Positions 4,154 through 9,749 of a stretch of 10,270 nucleotides of DNA are shown in pieces (positions within the stretch are counted from its first letter, which is position 1; each line of letters opens with the position of its first letter). Location: the NCBI GenBank assembly GCA_019358935.1, contig JAHHIK010000183.1, forward strand, positions 1 to 10,270, read 5' to 3'. This DNA comes from Tolypothrix carrinoi HA7290-LM1 (GTDB lineage: Bacteria; Cyanobacteriota; Cyanobacteriia; Cyanobacteriales; Nostocaceae). The notes beneath the pieces were generated by a model. It was not told the DNA's origin. It did not search any database and worked only from the letters and a program-made list of their open reading frames with translations. Position numbers and translations under genes: made by a program.

Positions 4154-4492
4154 TTATCCAACCAAACTTTCGACACAAAGAGGAACCATATCGCCATTCC
4201 TCGTCAGTCCTAACAACATTGGTTGTTGGGGTTGAATTAATTGACCTGTGAGTACGCAGCGTTCTTCTTGTTGAGCTGTTGCGGCTATGCTGGCTCGAAT
4301 ATCAGATCGCGAAAATCGGGGTTTCCACTCACCTGATTTTTGCTGGACATAATTCCAGAGTATATCTCGGATCAATGCCTGATATCCCTGGCTGCCGGCT
4401 AATTCTTTGAGTTTATCTTTTAGTTCGCGCTCCAGACGGATGCTGGTAACTTCCATGTCGGTGGTTGGCGTGCGAGCGATCGTATGCATCAC
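4154..4492 (-). CDS. trcR: Ribbon-helix-helix (CopG-like) repressor, TrcR-like regulator of the tRNA array
   Basis: RHH pattern EVTSIRLERELKDKLKELAG..GYQALIRDILWNYV; AAGGAG RBS upstream (ATG at 4489 may be the true start); gene order recalls the Anabaena PCC 7120 all0854 locus; symbol from recollection, not a search. Confidence 0.78.
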   Translation of the reverse strand: MMHTIARTPTTDMEVTSIRLERELKDKLKELAGSQGYQALIRDILWNYVQQKSGEWKPRFSRSDIRASIAATAQQEERCVLTGQLIQPQQPMLLGLTRNGDMVPLCVESLVG

Positions 4493-4510: not shown

Positions 4511-4557
4511 TGGACAGGATAGTAATACAAGTGTAGTATGTTTAAAGGAATGTTCAA
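4511..4557. promoter_or_regulatory. Overlapping divergent promoters with two putative TrcR boxes
   Basis: Plus strand TGGACA(4511-4516)-17 bp-TAGTAT(4534-4539); minus strand TTGAAC(4557-4552)-16 bp-TACACT(4535-4530); boxes AGTAATAC(4521) and TGTAGTAT(4532) 11 bp apart. Confidence 0.6.
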
Positions 4558-4890: not shown

Positions 4891-5409
4891 GTGACGAGCG
4901 CAATGCAAGTGTTAGAGCAATCCGTGGTGGTTTTTTCGCAAAACTACTTGCCACTGTGTCGGGTAAATATCAAGCGGGCGATCGTGCTGTTAGTAACAAA
5001 TAAAGCCGAACCGCTCGACTTTATCGCCGAAAACGGATGGCAAGTCCACTCACCCAGCTTGGTACTTTATGTACCAAAACACATTCGCTTGAAAATCGCT
5101 TCTAGTGAGCGCGTGTGGAAAATTCCACCGGTAAATCGACGGGAAGTGTTGCGACGAGACCATCACAGTTGCCAATATTGCGGTAGCAGCAAACATCTAA
5201 CGCTGGATCATGTGATTCCGCGATCTAAAGGCGGTTTGCATAGTTGGGATAACGTAGTCACAGCTTGTGAAAAATGTAACTCCCGTAAAGGCGATCGCAC
5301 TCTCTTTGAGACTGGTATGCAACTGCGTACCAAGCCAAAAGCACCAGTTCATCCGGCTATATCTTTCGCCGAACAGTTCTGGCGTTCGGAACAAGCAAAC
5401 CTGGAATAA
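4891..5409 (+). CDS. HNH endonuclease (McrA-like, zinc finger)
   Basis: RREVLRRDHHSCQYCG..LTLDHVIPRSKGG..SWDNVVTACEKCNSRKG; AAGGAG RBS 7 nt before GTG. Confidence 0.93.
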   Translation: MTSAMQVLEQSVVVFSQNYLPLCRVNIKRAIVLLVTNKAEPLDFIAENGWQVHSPSLVLYVPKHIRLKIASSERVWKIPPVNRREVLRRDHHSCQYCGSSKHLTLDHVIPRSKGGLHSWDNVVTACEKCNSRKGDRTLFETGMQLRTKPKAPVHPAISFAEQFWRSEQANLE

Positions 5410-5425: not shown

Positions 5426-5842
5426 ATGTTGAAATTAACTTACACTGAAAAAAGCTTTCACTTAGAGTGTTTAAATCAGTCCTTGGAGCAATGGGTGCAA
5501 GGGCGAGTGATTTTGGCACTGCGAGTTGGGCAATGTCTGTGCGTAGAACCGAGTACCGCTTCCTTTTTGCTTCCTGTTGATTTACCAGGAGTAGAAGCGC
5601 TAAAAGCTGAGGTAAAGCGCGACGTGTCAGAAATTATGGCGTTGTCAGTTTGTGATGCCGACTATTTAGAAGTTACTCTGCGCGGTTCTTGGATATCAAA
5701 TGGTTCTGAGGATGCTGAGGGTGTGTTTGTCACGACGATGAGCGATTCGCCTAACGGCGATAGCTTCGCTTCACGCACTGAATTTTTTGTACACAAACTC
5801 TGGCAAGAGGCGCAAAAAAGCGCCTCCGTCGTGAGCGAGTGA
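5426..5842 (+). CDS. Conserved cyanobacterial hypothetical protein (Alr0857-like)
   Basis: 138 aa, MLKLTYTE..LEQWVQGRVILALRVG..EPSTASFLLP; GGAG upstream; 16 bp after the HNH stop. Confidence 0.75.
   Translation: MLKLTYTEKSFHLECLNQSLEQWVQGRVILALRVGQCLCVEPSTASFLLPVDLPGVEALKAEVKRDVSEIMALSVCDADYLEVTLRGSWISNGSEDAEGVFVTTMSDSPNGDSFASRTEFFVHKLWQEAQKSASVVSE
5747..5773. mobile_element. 27-bp SDR5-like insertion splitting a HIP1 site inside the CDS
   Basis: GCGAT(5742-5746) + 27 bp with hairpins TCGCC-TAAC-GGCGA and AGC-TTC-GCT + CGC(5774-5776); in frame. Confidence 0.6.
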
Positions 5843-6204: not shown

Positions 6205-6245
6205 TTGACATCCTTTGTAGTATATTTGTAATATTTGTGTAGTGA
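6205..6245 (+). promoter_or_regulatory. Sigma70-type promoter of the tRNA array with three phased operator boxes
   Basis: TTGACA(6205-6210)-18 bp-TAATAT(6229-6234); TGTAGTAT(6216), TGTAATAT(6227), TGTAGTGA(6238). Confidence 0.78.
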
Positions 6246-6570: not shown

Positions 6571-6577
6571 CAAACAT

Positions 6578-6651
6578 GGGGGTATAGCTCAACTGGTTAG
6601 AGCAGTCGCCTGTCGAGCGAAAGGCTACGAGTTCAAGTCTCGTTACTCCCG
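6578..6651 (+). tRNA. trnD: tRNA-Asp(GUC)
   Basis: Acceptor GGGGGTA/TACTCCC, G73, loop CT-GTC-GA, T arm ACGAG-TTCAAGT-CTCGT. Confidence 0.88.
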
Positions 6652-6655
6652 TGAT

Positions 6656-6729
6656 AGTCCTGTAGGCGAATAGTTTAAGCGATCAGTTTCTCAAGCTGAA
6701 GATTGCGGGTGCAAATCCCGTCGGGACTT
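6656..6729 (+). tRNA. trnE: tRNA-Glu(CUC), atypical or degenerate
   Basis: AGTCCTG/CGGGACT, anticodon arm TCAGT-TT-CTC-AA-GCTGA; poorly paired D arm, T loop TGCAAAT. Confidence 0.6.
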
Positions 6730-6735
6730 GCAAAT

Positions 6736-6808
6736 GGCTGAGTAGCTAAGTGGTTGAAGGCGTCGGTCTGCAAAACCGATATCGTGAGTTCAAATCTCAC
6801 CTCAGCCT
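6736..6808 (+). tRNA. trnC: tRNA-Cys(GCA)
   Basis: GGCTGAG/CTCAGCC, U73, TCGGT-CT-GCA-AA-ACCGA. Confidence 0.9.
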
Positions 6809-6814
6809 TTGTGT

Positions 6815-6885
6815 CGCAGTGTAGCTTAACGCAAAGCCCCAAGCTCATACCTTGGTTGATGCGGGTGCAAATCCCGCCACTGCTA
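6815..6885 (+). tRNA. trnM: tRNA with CAU anticodon (Met-like), atypical
   Basis: CGCAGTG/CACTGCT with C1-U72 mismatch, CCAAG-CT-CAT-AC-CTTGG, D loop lacking GG, T loop TGCAAAT. Confidence 0.65.
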
Positions 6886-6890
6886 CTCAT

Positions 6891-6961
6891 GCAGGGATGG
6901 TGTAACGGCAACACCGCGCTCTCCAAAAGCGTTGTTCTGGGTTCAAATCCTAGTCCCTGCG
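6891..6961 (+). tRNA. trnW: tRNA-Trp(CCA)
   Basis: GCAGGGA/TCCCTGC, G73, GCGCT-CT-CCA-AA-AGCGT. Confidence 0.88.
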
Positions 6962-7001
6962 TTCTACTTCTTAAACTTGCACGGAGTAGATATTTAAATA
7001 T

Positions 7002-7074
7002 GGTGCCGTGGGCAAATGGTTAAGCCACCAGGCTTTCAATCTGGGGATTGCGGGTTCAAATCCCGTCGGCACTA
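7002..7074 (+). tRNA. trnE: tRNA-Glu(UUC)
   Basis: GGTGCCG/CGGCACT, CCAGG-CT-TTC-AA-TCTGG. Confidence 0.88.
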
Positions 7075-7082
7075 TAAAATTT

Positions 7083-7163
7083 GGGTCGGCTCGCCTATTG
7101 GTGTGGGCAGCGCTCTGTAAAAGCGTCCTTTATTGGTTGCAGGTTCAATTCCTGCCCGACCCA
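7083..7163 (+). tRNA. trnY: tRNA-Tyr(GUA)
   Basis: GGGTCGG/CCGACCC, A73, GCGCT-CT-GTA-AA-AGCGT, extended variable region. Confidence 0.85.
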
Positions 7164-7167
7164 CTGA

Positions 7168-7257
7168 GGAGAAGTGGCTGAGTGGCTAAAAGCGTCCTCC
7201 TGCTAAGAGGAAACGGGTAGTTAATACCCGTCGCAGGTTCAAATCCTGTCTTCTCCG
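7168..7257 (+). tRNA. trnS: tRNA-Ser(GCU)
   Basis: GGAGAAG/CTTCTCC, G73, TCCTC-CT-GCT-AA-GAGGA, long variable arm ACGGGTA/TACCCGT. Confidence 0.92.
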
Positions 7258-7261
7258 TTTT

Positions 7262-7335
7262 GGTCGCGTGGTGTAACTGGATAACATCTGAGTCTACGAA
7301 ACTCAAGAGTGAAGGTTCAATTCCTTCCGCGATCG
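7262..7335 (+). tRNA. trnR: tRNA-Arg(ACG)
   Basis: GGTCGCG/CGCGATC, TGAGT-CT-ACG-AA-ACTCA. Confidence 0.9.
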
Positions 7336-7343
7336 CCTTACAT

Positions 7344-7412
7344 GGGAGAGATGAAGTAGTGGCTGATTAGTGTTGAATTAAAGCAGTCCACTAGATAAAA
7401 CTTATCTCTCCT
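7344..7412 (+). ncRNA. Non-tRNA 69-nt stem-loop element within the array
   Basis: GGGAGAGATGA/TTATCTCTCCT (11 bp), asymmetric internal loop, TAGTGG/CCACTA, CTG/CAG; no T or D loop motifs. Confidence 0.4.
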
Positions 7413-7419
7413 TCTATAT

Positions 7420-7493
7420 CCCCCGGTAGCTCAGTTGGTAGTAGCGTCTGTCTGAAGAACAGAAGGTCGTCGGTTCGATTCCGACCTGGGGGG
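7420..7493 (+). tRNA. trnF: tRNA-Phe(GAA)
   Basis: CCCCCGG/CTGGGGG, TCTGT-CT-GAA-GA-ACAGA; unusual G73 and an extra nucleotide in the D arm. Confidence 0.82.
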
Positions 7494-7499
7494 CTTCGT

Positions 7500-7574
7500 T
7501 GCCCCATAGCTCAATGGTAGAGCGAGCGGCTGTTAACCGCGAGGTTGTAGGTTCGAGTCCTACTGGGGCAGCCA
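7500..7574 (+). tRNA. trnN: tRNA-Asn(GUU), CCA encoded
   Basis: TGCCCCA/TGGGGCA, G73-CCA, loop CT-GTT-AA. Confidence 0.92.
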
Positions 7575-7584
7575 TTTATCTCAT

Positions 7585-7660
7585 TGCCGGGTGGACAAAT
7601 TGGTAAAGTCACCTGGAGAAAGAAACAGGGGTTTTGCAGGTTCAAGCCCTGCCCCGGCAG
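7585..7660 (+). pseudogene. tRNA pseudogene, Gln-like body with corrupted anticodon loop
   Basis: TGCCGGG/CCCGGCA (U1-A72, G73), D and T arms intact, anticodon arm CCTG-GAGAAAGAAA-CAGG all purine with no U33. Confidence 0.65.
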
Positions 7661-7728
7661 CGATTTTCGATTTTGTAAGTTTAGTATTGTACCGCTAACA
7701 TCCAAAATTTTTGGTTAGCGGCATCTAT

Positions 7729-7804
7729 TGGGGAGTAGGCGACGTTGGCGATCGCCACCTGATTTTGGATCAGGATCTCGCGGGTTCGATTCCTGCCTCC
7801 CCAG
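7729..7804 (+). tRNA. trnQ: tRNA-Gln(UUG)
   Basis: TGGGGAG/CTCCCCA, G73, CCTGA-TT-TTG-GA-TCAGG; HIP1 in the D arm. Confidence 0.85.
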
Positions 7805-7833
7805 TTTCTGCTTTCATAAAGCAGCTAAATTAT

Positions 7834-7907
7834 GCTCCTGTAGCCCAACTGGTAGAGGCTGCCGTCTCAAAAACGGTAGGTTGTGAGTTCGAGTCTCACC
7901 AGGAGTA
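7834..7907 (+). tRNA. trnL: tRNA-Leu(CAA), short variable region
   Basis: GCTCCTG/CAGGAGT, A73, GCCGT-CT-CAA-AA-ACGGT. Confidence 0.85.
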
Positions 7908-7921
7908 GCAATTTTTACTTT

Positions 7922-7996
7922 GCTCTTGTAGCCCAATTGGTAGAGGTGGCAGATTTAAAATCTGTTTATGTGTGGGTTCGAGTCCCACCAAGAGCA
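7922..7996 (+). tRNA. trnL: tRNA-Leu(UAA), short variable region, no intron
   Basis: GCTCTTG/CAAGAGC, A73, GCAGA-TT-TAA-AA-TCTGT. Confidence 0.85.
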
Positions 7997-8000
7997 TCAA

Positions 8001-8073
8001 CGGGGTGTAGCGCAGCTGGCAGCGCGCCTGCTTTGGGAGCAGGATGTCGCAGGTTCAAATCCTGTCACCCCGA
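8001..8073 (+). tRNA. trnP: tRNA-Pro(UGG)
   Basis: CGGGGTG/CACCCCG, A73, CCTGC-TT-TGG-GA-GCAGG. Confidence 0.93.
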
Positions 8074-8080
8074 TCGCTTT

Positions 8081-8154
8081 ACTCCCGTAACCCAACTGGC
8101 AGAGGTGTCAGGTTGAGAGCCTGATTAGTACCAGTTCAAATCTGGTCGGGAGTA
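8081..8154 (+). tRNA. trnL: tRNA-Leu(GAG), short variable region
   Basis: ACTCCCG/CGGGAGT, A73, TCAGG-TT-GAG-AG-CCTGA. Confidence 0.82.
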
Positions 8155-8162
8155 TTAATTAT

Positions 8163-8236
8163 ACCTCCATAGCCCAACGGTAGAGGCGCTGTGTTCAGAA
8201 CGCAGTTACGTGTCGGTTCAAATCTGACTGGAGGTA
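8163..8236 (+). tRNA. trnL: tRNA-Leu(CAG), short variable region
   Basis: ACCTCCA/TGGAGGT, A73, CTGTG-TT-CAG-AA-CGCAG. Confidence 0.82.
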
Positions 8237-8244
8237 TCTATTAA

Positions 8245-8319
8245 GCCCCTGTAGCCCAATTGGAAGAGGCTCTAAGCTTAGAACTTAGATGTTTACTGGT
8301 TCAAGTCCAGTCAGGGGTA
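8245..8319 (+). tRNA. trnL: tRNA-Leu(UAG), short variable region
   Basis: GCCCCTG/CAGGGGT, A73, CTAAG-CT-TAG-AA-CTTAG. Confidence 0.85.
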
Positions 8320-8328
8320 TTGGTGCGA

Positions 8329-8407
8329 TGCGGGTGAAGTAGCCACGGTAGGCTTGGAGGTCTCATAAGCCTCTTTTTAGCAGGTTCAATTCCTGCCCCC
8401 GCCACCA
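8329..8407 (+). tRNA. tRNA with CAU anticodon (Met/fMet/Ile2 undetermined), irregular 5' half, CCA encoded
   Basis: GAGGT-CT-CAT-AA-GCCTC, T arm GCAGG-TTCAATT-CCTGC, 3' CCCCGCC-A-CCA; 5' strand TGCGGGT pairs only partly. Confidence 0.6.
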
Positions 8408-8417
8408 AAAAAAGCGT

Positions 8418-8494
8418 GCTGGTGTAGCTCAATCTGGCAGAGCAACCGCCTTGTAAGCGGTAGGTTGCAGGTTCAACTCCTGTCACCAGCCCCA
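8418..8494 (+). tRNA. trnT: tRNA-Thr(UGU), CCA encoded
   Basis: GCTGGTG/CACCAGC, ACCGC-CT-TGT-AA-GCGGT. Confidence 0.93.
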
Positions 8495-8553
8495 GAATTT
8501 CGCCATCTGCGTGCGGCTATGCCAAATTTGTATAGTCGATTGAGGAGTGTAAT

Positions 8554-9189
8554 ATGGCTGTAATAACTGTTACTGATGCTTTGGCAGAATTGACGCTGCT
8601 GCAAAAGCGCATCGAATCTACGAGAGCGGCTTTAGAAAACAATACTTTAATAACTGTTGTTGAAGTCGGCAAAGTTCCTACTGGCTTTAAATCCAGAGAG
8701 GAATACGAAGTCAATGCTAAAGCACTTGTGCAAAGAGTTCAAGCATTGCTTGACAGAAGACGAGCGATTAAAAGAGCAATCGTAGTTTCCAATGCTTCTA
8801 CTCGCGTGACAGTTGCAGGAGAGGAGATGACGGTAGCAGAAGCGATTGAAATGAAAAATTTCATCGACTATTACGAGGCAATTCTCGATACTATGCAGTC
8901 AGCTTACACTCAAACTCGCAATCAATACGAGAAAGCGCAGGCGAAAATTAAAGAAAGACTGGATAAACTGGCTTTAGAGGTTTTGGGAAAAAATGAAGCT
9001 GTAAATTCTGACCAATATCAGTCTTTGGTTGATAGCTTTATGGCAAGAGAAGGTGTGGAATTGTTAGATCCGACTAATATCTCTAAAGAAATAGAAAGAC
9101 GAATGACATTTATTGAAGAGTTCAAATCGACATGCGATCGCGTACTTTCCATCAGCAATGCCACGACAACTGTAGAAATCCCAGATTAG
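8554..9189 (+). CDS. Hypothetical helical/coiled-coil protein embedded in the tRNA array
   Basis: 211 aa, GAGGAG RBS at 8542-8547; two related motifs ITVTDALAEL and MTVAEAIEMK, plus AIVVSNAST and SISNATTTVEI; resemblance to DIP1984-like proteins is by eye only. Confidence 0.88.
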   Translation: MAVITVTDALAELTLLQKRIESTRAALENNTLITVVEVGKVPTGFKSREEYEVNAKALVQRVQALLDRRRAIKRAIVVSNASTRVTVAGEEMTVAEAIEMKNFIDYYEAILDTMQSAYTQTRNQYEKAQAKIKERLDKLALEVLGKNEAVNSDQYQSLVDSFMAREGVELLDPTNISKEIERRMTFIEEFKSTCDRVLSISNATTTVEIPD

Positions 9190-9198
9190 AATAATACT

Positions 9199-9428
9199 TG
9201 CTGGTCACTCGAAAATCTCTGAATTTATGGACTGCCTGAAAAGGCAACGAACTTAGGATTCGTCTCTAACTTTAAAGCTCAAAGGTTAACGCTCATCGCT
9301 TAAACCTTAACGCTCAAAGTTTAACTTGTTAAAGTTCAAATTTTAAAGCCTAAAGTTCGATGAAATCCAGGATGACGGTTTTAGGTTCCATAAAGCCTTG
9401 GGGTTTCCACCTGGCTGAGTGGTCAGCA
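9199..9428 (+). ncRNA. Candidate structured ncRNA with an internal heptamer-repeat tract
   Basis: 13-bp closing stem 9199-9211/9416-9428; TTTATGGA/TCCATAAA 9224-9231/9387-9394; GAAA-tetraloop hairpin 9233-9246; hairpin 9247-9263; CCAGG/CCTGG 9367-9371/9410-9414. Confidence 0.7.
9268..9359 (+). repeat. 13 degenerate tandem heptamer units (consensus AAGYTYA)
   Basis: AACTTTA AAGCTCA AAGGTTA ACGCTCA TCGCTTA AACCTTA ACGCTCA AAGTTTA ACTTGTTA AAGTTCA AATTTTA AAGCCTA AAGTTCG. Confidence 0.85.
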
Positions 9429-9447
9429 TTTTAAAGCTTTTAACTAT

Positions 9448-9518
9448 GCGAATGTGGTGTAGCGGTAGCATGTGAGTCTTCCAAACTCTTGGCACGAGTT
9501 CGAGCCTCGTCATTCGCT
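9448..9518 (+). tRNA. trnG: tRNA-Gly(UCC)
   Basis: GCGAATG/CATTCGC, U73, loop CT-TCC-AA. Confidence 0.9.
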
Positions 9519-9523
9519 TTAAT

Positions 9524-9599
9524 AGTCTTGTAGCTTCAACGGTAGAGCATTTGCATACTGAAGAGCAAGTGGTTGCAAGTTCGATTCTTGTCAGGACTA
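9524..9599 (+). pseudogene. tRNA pseudogene (possibly ex-Val) with 10-nt anticodon loop
   Basis: AGTCTTG/CAGGACT, A73, T arm GCAAG-TTCGATT-CTTGT; anticodon arm TTTGC-ATACTGAAGA-GCAAG. Confidence 0.6.
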
Positions 9600-9609
9600 T
9601 TAATTTTAT

Positions 9610-9683
9610 GGGGTCATAGCTCAATTGGCTAGAGCGCCTGCCTTGCAAGCAGGAGGTTATGGGTTCGATTCCCATTGATTCCA
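9610..9683 (+). tRNA. trnA: tRNA-Ala(UGC)
   Basis: GGGGTCA/TGATTCC with G3-U70, A73, CCTGC-CT-TGC-AA-GCAGG. Confidence 0.92.
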
Positions 9684-9749
9684 CTTAGTTTTAGGTACAA
9701 GTAGTCGAGTCACTGTAAAATTATTTTACTTGCTTGACCACTAAAGCCA

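Follow-up and report, generated by a model that had tools for sequence, protein, structure and literature searches.

What is carried between the tRNA genes of a cyanobacterial tRNA operon, and what could it be for? The question is raised by a stretch of 10,270 nucleotides (nt) from Tolypothrix carrinoi HA7290-LM1 (assembly GCA_019358935.1), here called the window. It is a complete contig, JAHHIK010000183.1, of a genome that totals 7.96 Mb. Between tRNA-Thr and tRNA-Gly in a long tRNA array lie the gene of a helical protein and, directly behind it, a segment with repeated heptamers. A sequence-only reading, made from the letters of the window, had taken the two for a cassette of a protein and a non-coding RNA. 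Here we show that the protein gene and a structured RNA form an obligately linked cassette and that this cassette is widespread, both in large phages and in the mobile tRNA arrays of cyanobacteria.

The protein gene and the structured RNA form a linked cassette

The gene is located at 8554-9189 on the forward strand, as are all parts of the cassette. It runs from an ATG to the stop codon TAG (9187-9189) and encodes a protein of 211 amino acids that matches phrog_1491 and may have a fold like that of DIP1984 (PDB 3KDQ). A ribosome-binding site, GAGGAG at 8542-8547, can be read from the sequence 6 nt 5' of the ATG. The sequence-only reading had described both the intact helical reading frame with its strong ribosome-binding site and, 9 nt past the stop, a segment of 230 nt; this is the RNA element at 9199-9428. 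The ends of the segment do pair as it had claimed, but over 12 base pairs (bp), including two G-U pairs, and not over 13. This closing helix, P1, joins 9199-9210 with 9417-9428.

P1 is followed by a conserved junction, GAAAAUCUCUGAA, at 9211-9223 (family consensus CGAAAAC..AAAC, alignment A2). The next strand, UUUAUGG at 9224-9230, belongs to helix P2 and pairs with CCAUAAA at 9388-9394, forming a pseudoknot. A variable region at 9233-9263 reads as two hairpins, while relatives have other hairpins or whole tRNA-like inserts here; the second hairpin (9247-9263) has the shape of an anticodon arm, with a 5-bp stem and the 7-nt loop CUUAGGA. The 7-nt periodic tract occupies 9271-9362. It holds 13 units with the consensus N-U-Y-A-A-a-g, the number counted earlier from the sequence, and has a single 1-nt phase slip at 9327. 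Over the ~105 nt before P3 the identity is 0.53 at a lag of 7, 0.59 at a lag of 14 and 0.51 at a lag of 21; at lags 3-4 it is 0.08-0.11.

The 3' part begins at 9363-9371 with AAAU and the 5' strand of P3, CCAGG (9367-9371), which pairs with CCUGG at 9410-9414. The latter is followed by the invariant CU of the GCUG motif (strand and CU together 9410-9416), and GCUG is present in 52/52 sequences. The hairpin P4 (9383-9398, AGG/CCU, 4-5 bp in relatives) was placed in the window by homology, and its loop carries the 3' strand of P2. When 9190-9447 is folded the stability has a z-score of -2.85, and 2 of 200 shuffled sequences are as stable.

The arrangement recurs far outside the window. In 12 annotated records of unrelated phages (Achelous, PN09, T5, Deep Blue, AM9, phiCD211, RsoM2USA, Dulem virus 39, Astolliot, a Klebsiella phage, LAh_9 and Ea35-70) no credible gene is annotated in the 300-640 nt that come after the protein gene. 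By eye, the layout of these gaps matches, and the cyanobacterial loci show it likewise. The RNA follows the gene in nearly all loci examined, including those of T5, of Bacillus, Vibrio, Pseudomonas, Lactococcus and Clostridioides phages and of cyanobacterial tRNA arrays.

Detection was counted over 101 loci, which were selected since they encode the protein. We searched for P3 as a motif (AAAU/C, a 5-bp helix and CUG after its 3' strand) and for P1 with at least 9 of 10 bp. Downstream of the gene, P3 is found in 71/89 distinct regions, and P3 together with P1 in 62/89. The reverse complement of these regions gives 0/89 in both cases, the upstream regions give 1/87 and 0/87, and shuffled sequences give 4/89 and 0/89. 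A covariance model of the 3' domain was trained on 49 sequences, 47 from the searched sources plus loci L104 and L105, which were not searched. It has a match in 87/98 sources, in each a single one, on the strand of the gene and downstream of it. Chance is far from explaining the cassette, since about 90 independent loci share the arrangement and the controls come out empty. Looking for a closing stem and a 7-nt periodic tract behind homologous genes was the check that the sequence-only reading had proposed, and the downstream regions do hold both.

Further, the two parts occur in the same genomes. Among 151 cyanobacterial genomes sampled evenly across the class, the RNA model and the protein are found in the same three, with the RNA about 200-290 nt downstream on the same strand; neither is found in the other 148. 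The three carriers are from different families, as expected of a mobile element. The Tolypothrix genome has one copy each of RNA and protein.

Across the family the order from 5' to 3' is P1, CGAAAAC..AAAC, P2, the variable region, the periodic tract, CGAUA-AAAUC, P3, AAGGUU, P4, UAGUUUCC, the 3' strand of P3, CUG and the 3' strand of P1. Elements are 230-464 nt long, that of T5 measuring about 357 nt and the cyanobacterial ones about 230-245 nt, and P1 starts at a median of 16 nt past the stop codon (spacing 5-60 nt). The P4 loop of 12-13 nt encloses the 3' strand of P2, which lies within the P3 domain, usually 15-21 nt in. The layout is that of a pseudoknotted core (P2, P3 and P4 with the junctions CGAAAAC, AAAUC and GCUG) that clamps a large loop, and this loop contains a region tolerant of insertions and the periodic tract. 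A hammerhead-like reading of CUGA..GAAA was rejected, as CUG alone is conserved.

Helix statistics were calculated from 52 non-redundant elements. P1 is 91.6% paired with compensatory changes in 11/12 pairs, and P3 is 99.2% paired with compensatory changes in 4/5 pairs. Their covariation score is 0.679, compared with 0.220 for shuffles (0/500 as high) and at most 0.211 for slid partners; these numbers partly restate the selection, because elements were picked by P1 and P3. P2, periodicity and co-occurrence alone escape this bias. At the register anchored by the conserved junction, the two P2 strands are perfect 7/7 complements in 29/52 elements. One position off in either direction the count is 8/52 and 12/52, at offsets of two or more it is 2-8/52, and among shuffled 7-mers 12% are perfect. 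The P2 sequences are diverse, for instance UUUAUGG/CCAUAAA, UACAAUC/GAUUGUA and CAGAGAA/UUCUCUG.

RNAalifold applied to the 3' domain recovers P3 alone. MAFFT misaligns the loop, leaving P2 44.9% paired when counted by columns, so P4 and P2 were demonstrated in the individual sequences; tract and P4 are aligned only approximately. The frequent G-U pairs, together with the empty reverse strand, indicate that the fold is selected in RNA and not in DNA.

The periodicity is equally general. In 53/63 distinct elements the best lag between 2 and 13 is 7. Lags 7, 14 and 21 give mean identities of 0.466, 0.432 and 0.396, respectively, compared with 0.20 for lags 3-4. In the variable region of these RNAs the identity stays flat, at 0.27-0.31, over the lags. 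In a lag-7 test blind to structure, 82/90 downstream regions exceed the 95th percentile of the upstream regions, and 69/90 exceed their maximum. The tract is 92-97 nt long in 31/52 elements, the median being 95 nt (13.6 units), and the longer tracts contain inserted hairpins. In composition it is A 39%, U 32%, G 15% and C 13%; with A at 39% and U at 32% it is not fully self-pairable, which rules out a self-paired rod. Regular, unpaired motifs in fixed number on a closed scaffold are what one would expect of a binding platform with a defined size.

A similar repeat exists as DNA on contig C148 (G000:C148:10523-10679; L002:1445-1670). This is an intergenic, near-perfect tandem array in which a 21-nt unit is repeated about 11 times; the unit consists of three heptads (GGCTTAA AGTTCAA AGCTCAA-like), and the array is 71-74% identical to the RNA tract.

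No Rfam 15 family matches the RNA at the gathering score in the window or in L004, L005, L008, L010, L011 and L016-L019, where the Rfam matches are tRNAs and one skipping-rope RNA elsewhere in L018. With E-values in place of gathering scores, the best match in 9150-9470 is a microRNA model that scores 27 bits, where its cut-off is 66. The sequence-only reading knew no named family for such a layout, and no Rfam family has turned up.

The protein family and the tRNA operon

The profile of phrog_1491 aligns with the 211-residue protein from end to end (E 2.7e-54; residues 3-209 on positions 4-209 of the 211 in the profile). No Pfam or NCBIfam family is over its cut-off (five weak Pfam hits, E 0.0035-0.072). 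A tblastn search finds the protein in 731/50,697 phage records, in 710 of which at least 80% of the query is covered; these include T5-like Salmonella and Escherichia phages and phages of Pseudomonas, Vibrio, Bacillus, Klebsiella, Erwinia and Lactococcus. An exhaustive search gives 2111 clusters at 50% identity with E <= 1e-3, and 1375 with E <= 1e-10; among the 150 listed, the usual length is 200-217 amino acids. Cyanobacteria have 607 relatives at E <= 1e-5. A scan of viral contigs with the single 211-residue sequence gave no match, and the matches came when an alignment was used as query.

PHROGs labels phrog_1491 "tail fiber protein". Gene position and fold speak against this function: in T5 the gene lies amid tRNA and early genes, the cyanobacterial copies are inside chromosomal tRNA arrays with no tail genes nearby, and the protein folds into a short helical bundle. 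The label is misleading and seems to have been inherited.

The AlphaFold2 model has a mean predicted local distance difference test (pLDDT) score of 96.4, and consists of five long helices and a small four-stranded sheet. The motif SNAxT occurs twice in the sequence. Among proteins of the PDB, the best match by sequence has a profile-to-sequence E-value of 0.032, and Foldseek finds none at E <= 0.001. The ESM Atlas gives unnamed clusters only, mostly viral. The only structure that stands out is 3KDQ, DIP1984 of Corynebacterium diphtheriae, with a VIA-align Z of 11.4 and 7.8 for the next row. Foldseek gives it an E-value of 2.1e-3, weaker than the threshold of 0.001, and the profile-to-sequence E-value of 0.032 is likewise that of 3KDQ. 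The alignment covers 152/152 residues with a root-mean-square deviation of 7.7 Å and 16% identity, and high scores come easily to helical bundles.

In the window, the cassette is part of an array of 24 tRNA genes at 6577-9684, all on the forward strand (23 by ARAGORN, 22 by Rfam, 24 in union). The cyanobacterial arrays controlled by TrcR, the L-arrays, are defined by a single strand with more than 20 tRNA genes, and this is what is found here. Directly 5' of the cassette is tRNA-Thr(UGU) at 8418-8494, and 19 nt 3' of the RNA is tRNA-Gly(UCC) at 9448-9518, both found by ARAGORN and Rfam. Some members of the array are unusual: at 7585-7661 ARAGORN finds a tRNA with an 8-nt anticodon loop and the four-base anticodon 'aaag', which is below the Rfam gathering score. 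At 9524-9599 a tRNA is found by Rfam (46.6 bits) and missed by ARAGORN, and at 8333-8407 a tRNA-Met is found by ARAGORN and not listed by Rfam. Unusual tRNAs are present in the arrays of relatives too: L006 and L013 have anticodons of four or two bases, and L012 has the stop-reading anticodon 'tta'.

Upstream of the array are a trcR-like gene for a ribbon-helix-helix repressor (4154-4492, reverse strand; weak Pfam matches and synteny), an HNH gene (4891-5409; synteny) and a gene of the alr0857 family (5426-5842; NF045647, E 1.3e-47). This corresponds to the order all0854 (trcR), alr0856, alr0857 given for Anabaena in the accessible text of PMC10272220. A TrcR operator precedes the trcR-like gene at 4522-4539 on the reverse strand, as the exact reverse complement of the 18-nt motif by which the same paper defines the operator of trcR. 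The putative promoter of the tRNA operon is at 6205-6244 on the forward strand, with a -35 box TTGACA (6205-6210), a -10 box TAATAT (6229-6234) and three TrcR-like boxes 11 nt apart: TGTAGTAT at 6216, TGTAATAT at 6227 and TGTGTAGT at 6237. The first of these is the box footprinted at the Anabaena trn promoter (PMC10272220, available part). The two further boxes overlap the -10 box, downstream of TTGACA, and the program TRF reports a period of 11 at 6214-6243.

By sequence, then, the array has what also characterises L-arrays, TrcR operators at its promoter and a trcR gene with an operator of its own. The earlier description as a repressor-controlled tRNA operon is well founded on these sites, with repression itself presumed. 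The cassette in the window is predicted to be co-transcribed with a stress-induced tRNA operon under TrcR-type control. Here trcR and the tRNA array are neighbours, while the array of Anabaena PCC 7120 sits on a megaplasmid. A possible relation of the protein to Alr3301 had also been suggested, and it finds no support here; Alr3301 is described as a hypothetical protein co-transcribed with rimK in Anabaena (PMC10272220, accessible portion). With the RimK neighbourhood taken as a stand-in for alr3301-3303, none of the open reading frames beside RimK-like genes of the Tolypothrix genome is similar to the 211-residue protein, and no TrcR box is found there. Embedded protein genes have been noted in long cyanobacterial tRNA arrays, and the accessible passages of that paper on non-coding elements and open reading frames mention no RNA element (PMC8421152).

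The link with tRNA genes holds in general. Eight of the nine cyanobacterial loci are within tRNA arrays, five with tRNA-Thr just upstream. Of 81 distinct viral loci, 55 have a tRNA at most 1.5 kb away; these tRNAs number 198 and without exception share the strand of the gene. At 21 viral loci a tRNA ends at most 150 nt from the gene start. A tRNA follows within 150 nt of the element in 16/54 cases, and a terminator-like hairpin stands behind 16/63 elements, typically 7 nt past P1. Within the variable region, anticodon-arm-like hairpins are found in 14/63 elements where 2.7 are expected, and three elements (L011, L044 and L053) have whole tRNA-like inserts. The insert at L011:3809-3883 has an Rfam tRNA score of 46 bits, and positions 104-175 of the L044 element are a tRNA-Gln. 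In Erwinia phage Ea35-70, L025:3030-3110 contains pieces like a permuted tRNA, with the T arm ahead of the acceptor and the D arm.

What the cassette may do

The reading that we prefer, though we hold it tentatively and rate its chances as somewhat short of even, is that the cassette specifies a ribonucleoprotein tied to tRNA and to translation stress, in which the protein would bind the RNA. Processing of the tRNAs would free the transcript between tRNA-Thr and tRNA-Gly. Such a release, already proposed from the sequence, is plausible, with tRNAs of the same strand flanking the cassette here and in many other loci. The protein would then be translated from the freed transcript and form symmetric dimers, and these may bind the RNA made in cis, either at its core or in register on the mostly single-stranded heptad tract. 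We infer that the two products form a particle, with the tract as its reading surface. It would be of fixed size, with ~13-14 heptads, and might act on tRNA or the translation apparatus in infection or stress, for instance by serving a factor directed at tRNA or RNA as scaffold or decoy. In favour of this reading we count the strict linkage of gene and RNA, the covarying and pseudoknotted fold, the periodic tract, the confident models of the protein and its dimer, five conserved basic columns in the protein family, the nearby tRNA genes, the TrcR-type sites of the array and a hint of expression.

Several observations weigh against this reading. The protein family is not basic, unlike RNA-coating proteins: its median isoelectric point is 6.0, and the copy in the window has 5.1 and a net charge of -5. 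The modelled dimer is symmetric and not head-to-tail, so that "one subunit per heptamer", as the sequence-only reading had it, is not simply implied. The acidic-to-neutral charge and the predicted symmetric dimer together argue against a simple coat of that kind. The homodimer model passes its controls, with a score of 0.72 and 0.00 for the best control; this mark is reached by 20/30 proteins solved as pairs and by 1/23 solved as single chains. The runs agree in at least 91% of contacts, with a pLDDT of at least 89 for the partner and a symmetric interface. However, the pass may partly reflect memory, because the related fold 3KDQ was solved with four chains.

The neighbouring genes count against the reading as well. 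They are heterogeneous, and no single conserved third partner is found among them. The selection behind the P1 and P3 figures, given above, belongs here too. Further, 11 of the 98 sources have no match to the covariance model (L005, L009, L022, L025, L041, L043, L046, L071, L090, L098 and L099). Of these, L009 is a contig cut short, and eight (L022, L025, L041, L043, L090, L098, L005 and L071) have a lag-7 excess higher than 0.19, the 95th percentile of the upstream regions; in L046 and L099 it is not higher.

Assembled contigs from four metatranscriptome studies cover the element. The contig of X1 spans 8463-9488, from tRNA-Thr through the gene and the RNA into tRNA-Gly; its source is a relative, with 83 differences and 11 gaps over 1026 bases. 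The contig of X7 covers 8958-9419, and short contigs confined to the element come from X5 (9197-9348) and X10 (9208-9348). These contigs are only a hint of expression, as DNA carry-over, and strain variation at the ends, could explain them, and stretches that no contig covers carry no information.

How do other explanations compare? It is possible, though in our view rather unlikely, that the RNA is a decoy or sponge independent of the protein. With its ~13 tandem units and its tRNA-like inserts it would titrate away a host or phage factor that recognises tRNA loops or single strands rich in A; an anticodon nuclease, some other endoribonuclease or an RNA chaperone would be examples. The protein would be a helper (a stabiliser, a chaperone or a separate effector) that does not read the tract. 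Anticodon loops follow the pattern Y-U-NNN-R-N, and 7 nt is the size of both anticodon and T loops. The heptad N-U-Y-A-A-a-g fits this pattern, and the excess of anticodon-arm-like hairpins, the three tRNA-like inserts, the tight linkage to tRNA genes and the acidic to neutral protein all fit such a decoy, as do some of the phage neighbours: Tad2-like anti-defence genes, the cREC gene T5.084, PARG-like genes and YqeY. Still, the heptad units lack the flanking stems of real tRNA loops, the conserved ~95-nt tract suggests an assembly of fixed size and not an open-ended sponge, and the strict co-occurrence with the protein gene, at a spacing of 5-60 nt, favours a direct partnership. We regard it as quite unlikely that the element acts in cis, in the 3' untranslated region, on the stability, termination or translation of the upstream mRNA, for example through autoregulation by the protein. 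The RNA is always directly downstream on the same strand, sometimes with a terminator-like hairpin after it, and with P1 at a median of 16 nt past the stop codon a terminating ribosome would touch it. But a pseudoknotted fold of 230-464 nt with a tract of ~13 units and conserved length far exceeds what known 3' stabilisers need, processing of the embedded tRNAs would sever the element from the mRNA, and the short contigs of X5 and X10 cover the element alone, a weak hint.

A pairing of a protein gene with a repeat-bearing RNA also recalls type III toxin-antitoxin or abortive-infection pairs, in which a repeat RNA neutralises a toxic protein, and antitoxin-RNA mimics are known in phages. For the present cassette we consider this very improbable: the repeats are of 7 nt and downstream of the gene, where type III systems have units of ~36 nt upstream, behind a terminator. 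A Pfam scan of the protein, a helical bundle, shows no ToxN or AbiQ family up to E 0.1. Finally, the segment could be a repeat at the level of DNA, that is, an STRR-like heptamer repeat, a miniature transposable element with terminal inverted repeats, or DNA-bound iterons. Cyanobacterial genomes are rich in heptamer repeats, as at 428-482 of the window, and contig C148 has the 21-nt tandem array of similar heptads. However, only the tract resembles that array, one full copy of the element is present in 7.96 Mb, the element is conserved in phages of Firmicutes and Proteobacteria, its helices accept G-U pairs, and the search for the motif on the opposite strand is empty. This explanation is close to refuted.

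A bolder form of the ribonucleoprotein reading is unlikely as a whole. The cassette would then represent an unrecognised ribonucleoprotein class, widespread in large phages and mobile cyanobacterial tRNA operons, that works as a multivalent decoy or docking platform and shields the tRNA pool and translation. About 13 unpaired, tRNA-loop-like units, and swappable tRNA or anticodon-arm inserts, would be presented on a pseudoknotted scaffold to tRNA-directed nucleases or stress factors. If true, this would explain why the module travels with tRNA arrays and is induced by translational stress.

The family comprises more than 2000 sequence clusters and includes a gene of the model phage T5, and yet it has a misleading label and an RNA partner absent from Rfam. 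Both phage tRNA clusters and a tRNA operon of a cyanobacterium, predicted to be de-repressed under translational stress, contain the module, and this joins two questions: for what reason tRNA arrays travel on phages and mobile elements, and what more such arrays need to function. The window adds the cyanobacterial, TrcR-linked setting.

Known systems and neighbouring genes

Of known systems the module most resembles Ro60 (Rsr) and its Y RNA (YrlA), but no TROVE domain, which defines that family, is found in its protein. In both, a protein gene adjoins that of a structured RNA whose two ends pair, and the system is found in bacteria and phages; Y RNA carries a tRNA-like module, and some elements here hold a tRNA-like insert. 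Both also keep company with RNA repair genes: bacterial Ro60 and Y RNA are linked to genes such as rtcB (PMC4201824, accessible part), and rtcB is included in the TrcR regulon of Anabaena (PMC10272220, accessible part). On the other hand, Ro60 is a ring of ~500 residues with TROVE and vWA domains, whereas the protein here has 211 residues, its Pfam hits do not include the TROVE domain, and its model is an all-helical bundle with a small sheet. The Y RNA models of Rfam have no match, and Y RNAs have neither a 7-nt periodic tract nor such a pseudoknot core. Of the features typical of Y RNAs, the module RNA has the terminal stem, and a minority of its elements, L011, L044 and L053 only, has the tRNA-like insert.

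TRAP and HutP come to mind for the tract. TRAP reads 11 GAG/UAG triplets, and HutP reads UAG repeats 7 nt apart. As in the module, with its ~13-14 units at 7 nt, regular short motifs lie in unpaired RNA, and a fixed number of units suits an oligomer of fixed size. Their arrays are, however, in mRNA leaders, serve attenuation control and have no closing pseudoknot scaffold, and their beta-rich folds are unrelated to the helical protein, whose binding to the RNA is presumed here.

GOLLD and ROOL are often near tRNA genes, and share with the module the big intricate folds, the occurrence in phages and the company of tRNA genes. They are described as large, ornate phage-associated RNAs of unknown function that form RNA-only assemblies (bioRxiv 10.1101/2024.12.08.627333, accessible part). 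The module RNA differs in being smaller (230-464 nt), in its obligate protein-gene partner and periodic tract, and in having no Rfam match. DIP1984, the best structural match to the protein, has 152-154 residues and not 211, at 16% identity and with a high deviation; the match explains nothing, because DIP1984 has no known function. ToxIN likewise combines a protein with a tandem-repeat RNA and acts in phage-host conflict, but its repeats are of ~36 nt against 7 nt, and the gene order, the protein fold and the pseudoknotted scaffold differ.

As candidate classes for the module, we rejected type III toxin-antitoxin systems, on account of the downstream 7-nt units, which differ from the tandem repeats of ~34-36 nt that stand before a ToxN/AbiQ-type endoribonuclease gene, the helical fold and the lack of ToxN/AbiQ among the weak Pfam hits, and STRR or miniature transposable elements, given the single full copy in 7.96 Mb.

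Literature on phrog_1491, DIP1984, T5 genes, RNA repair, the T5 transcriptome and structured or pseudoknotted RNAs gives no account of the module. In the accessible text of a study of 10,006 viral candidate RNAs (PMC10690425) there is no passage on it, and six contig names are absent from the searchable supplements; an unnamed entry in this catalogue is possible, because the catalogue is only partly searchable. For a pseudoknot clamp holding a 7-nt periodic single strand of fixed length we could find no described counterpart.

The genes around the module vary, and include PARG-type, cREC, Tad2-like (3 loci), YqeY, ProQ, PhoH, HU and homing endonuclease genes. In two Calothrix arrays a gene of the microbial PARG type, with a macro domain, directly follows the RNA (L008:3912-4754 and L013:3909-4739; PF10021, E 1e-52). 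We take the TIGR02452 family, that of alr1372, to be PARG-like. A gene of this family, alr1372, is listed in the TrcR regulon of Anabaena (PMC10272220, accessible part). The next gene after the RNA in T5 is T5.084 (L016:4070-4384), annotated as hypothetical, which contains a cREC domain (PF20274, E 3.4e-15). The cREC domain is receiver-like and has been proposed to process cyclic phosphates.

The heptamer repeats at 428-482 of the window are short and perfect, CCCTACC in 2.4 copies and ACACCCC in 3.9, typical of filamentous cyanobacteria and unrelated to the RNA tract. In Lactococcus phage AM9 the skipping-rope RNA (RF02924, 71.8 bits) is located at L018:215-293, beside tRNAs and ~2.7 kb upstream of the module.

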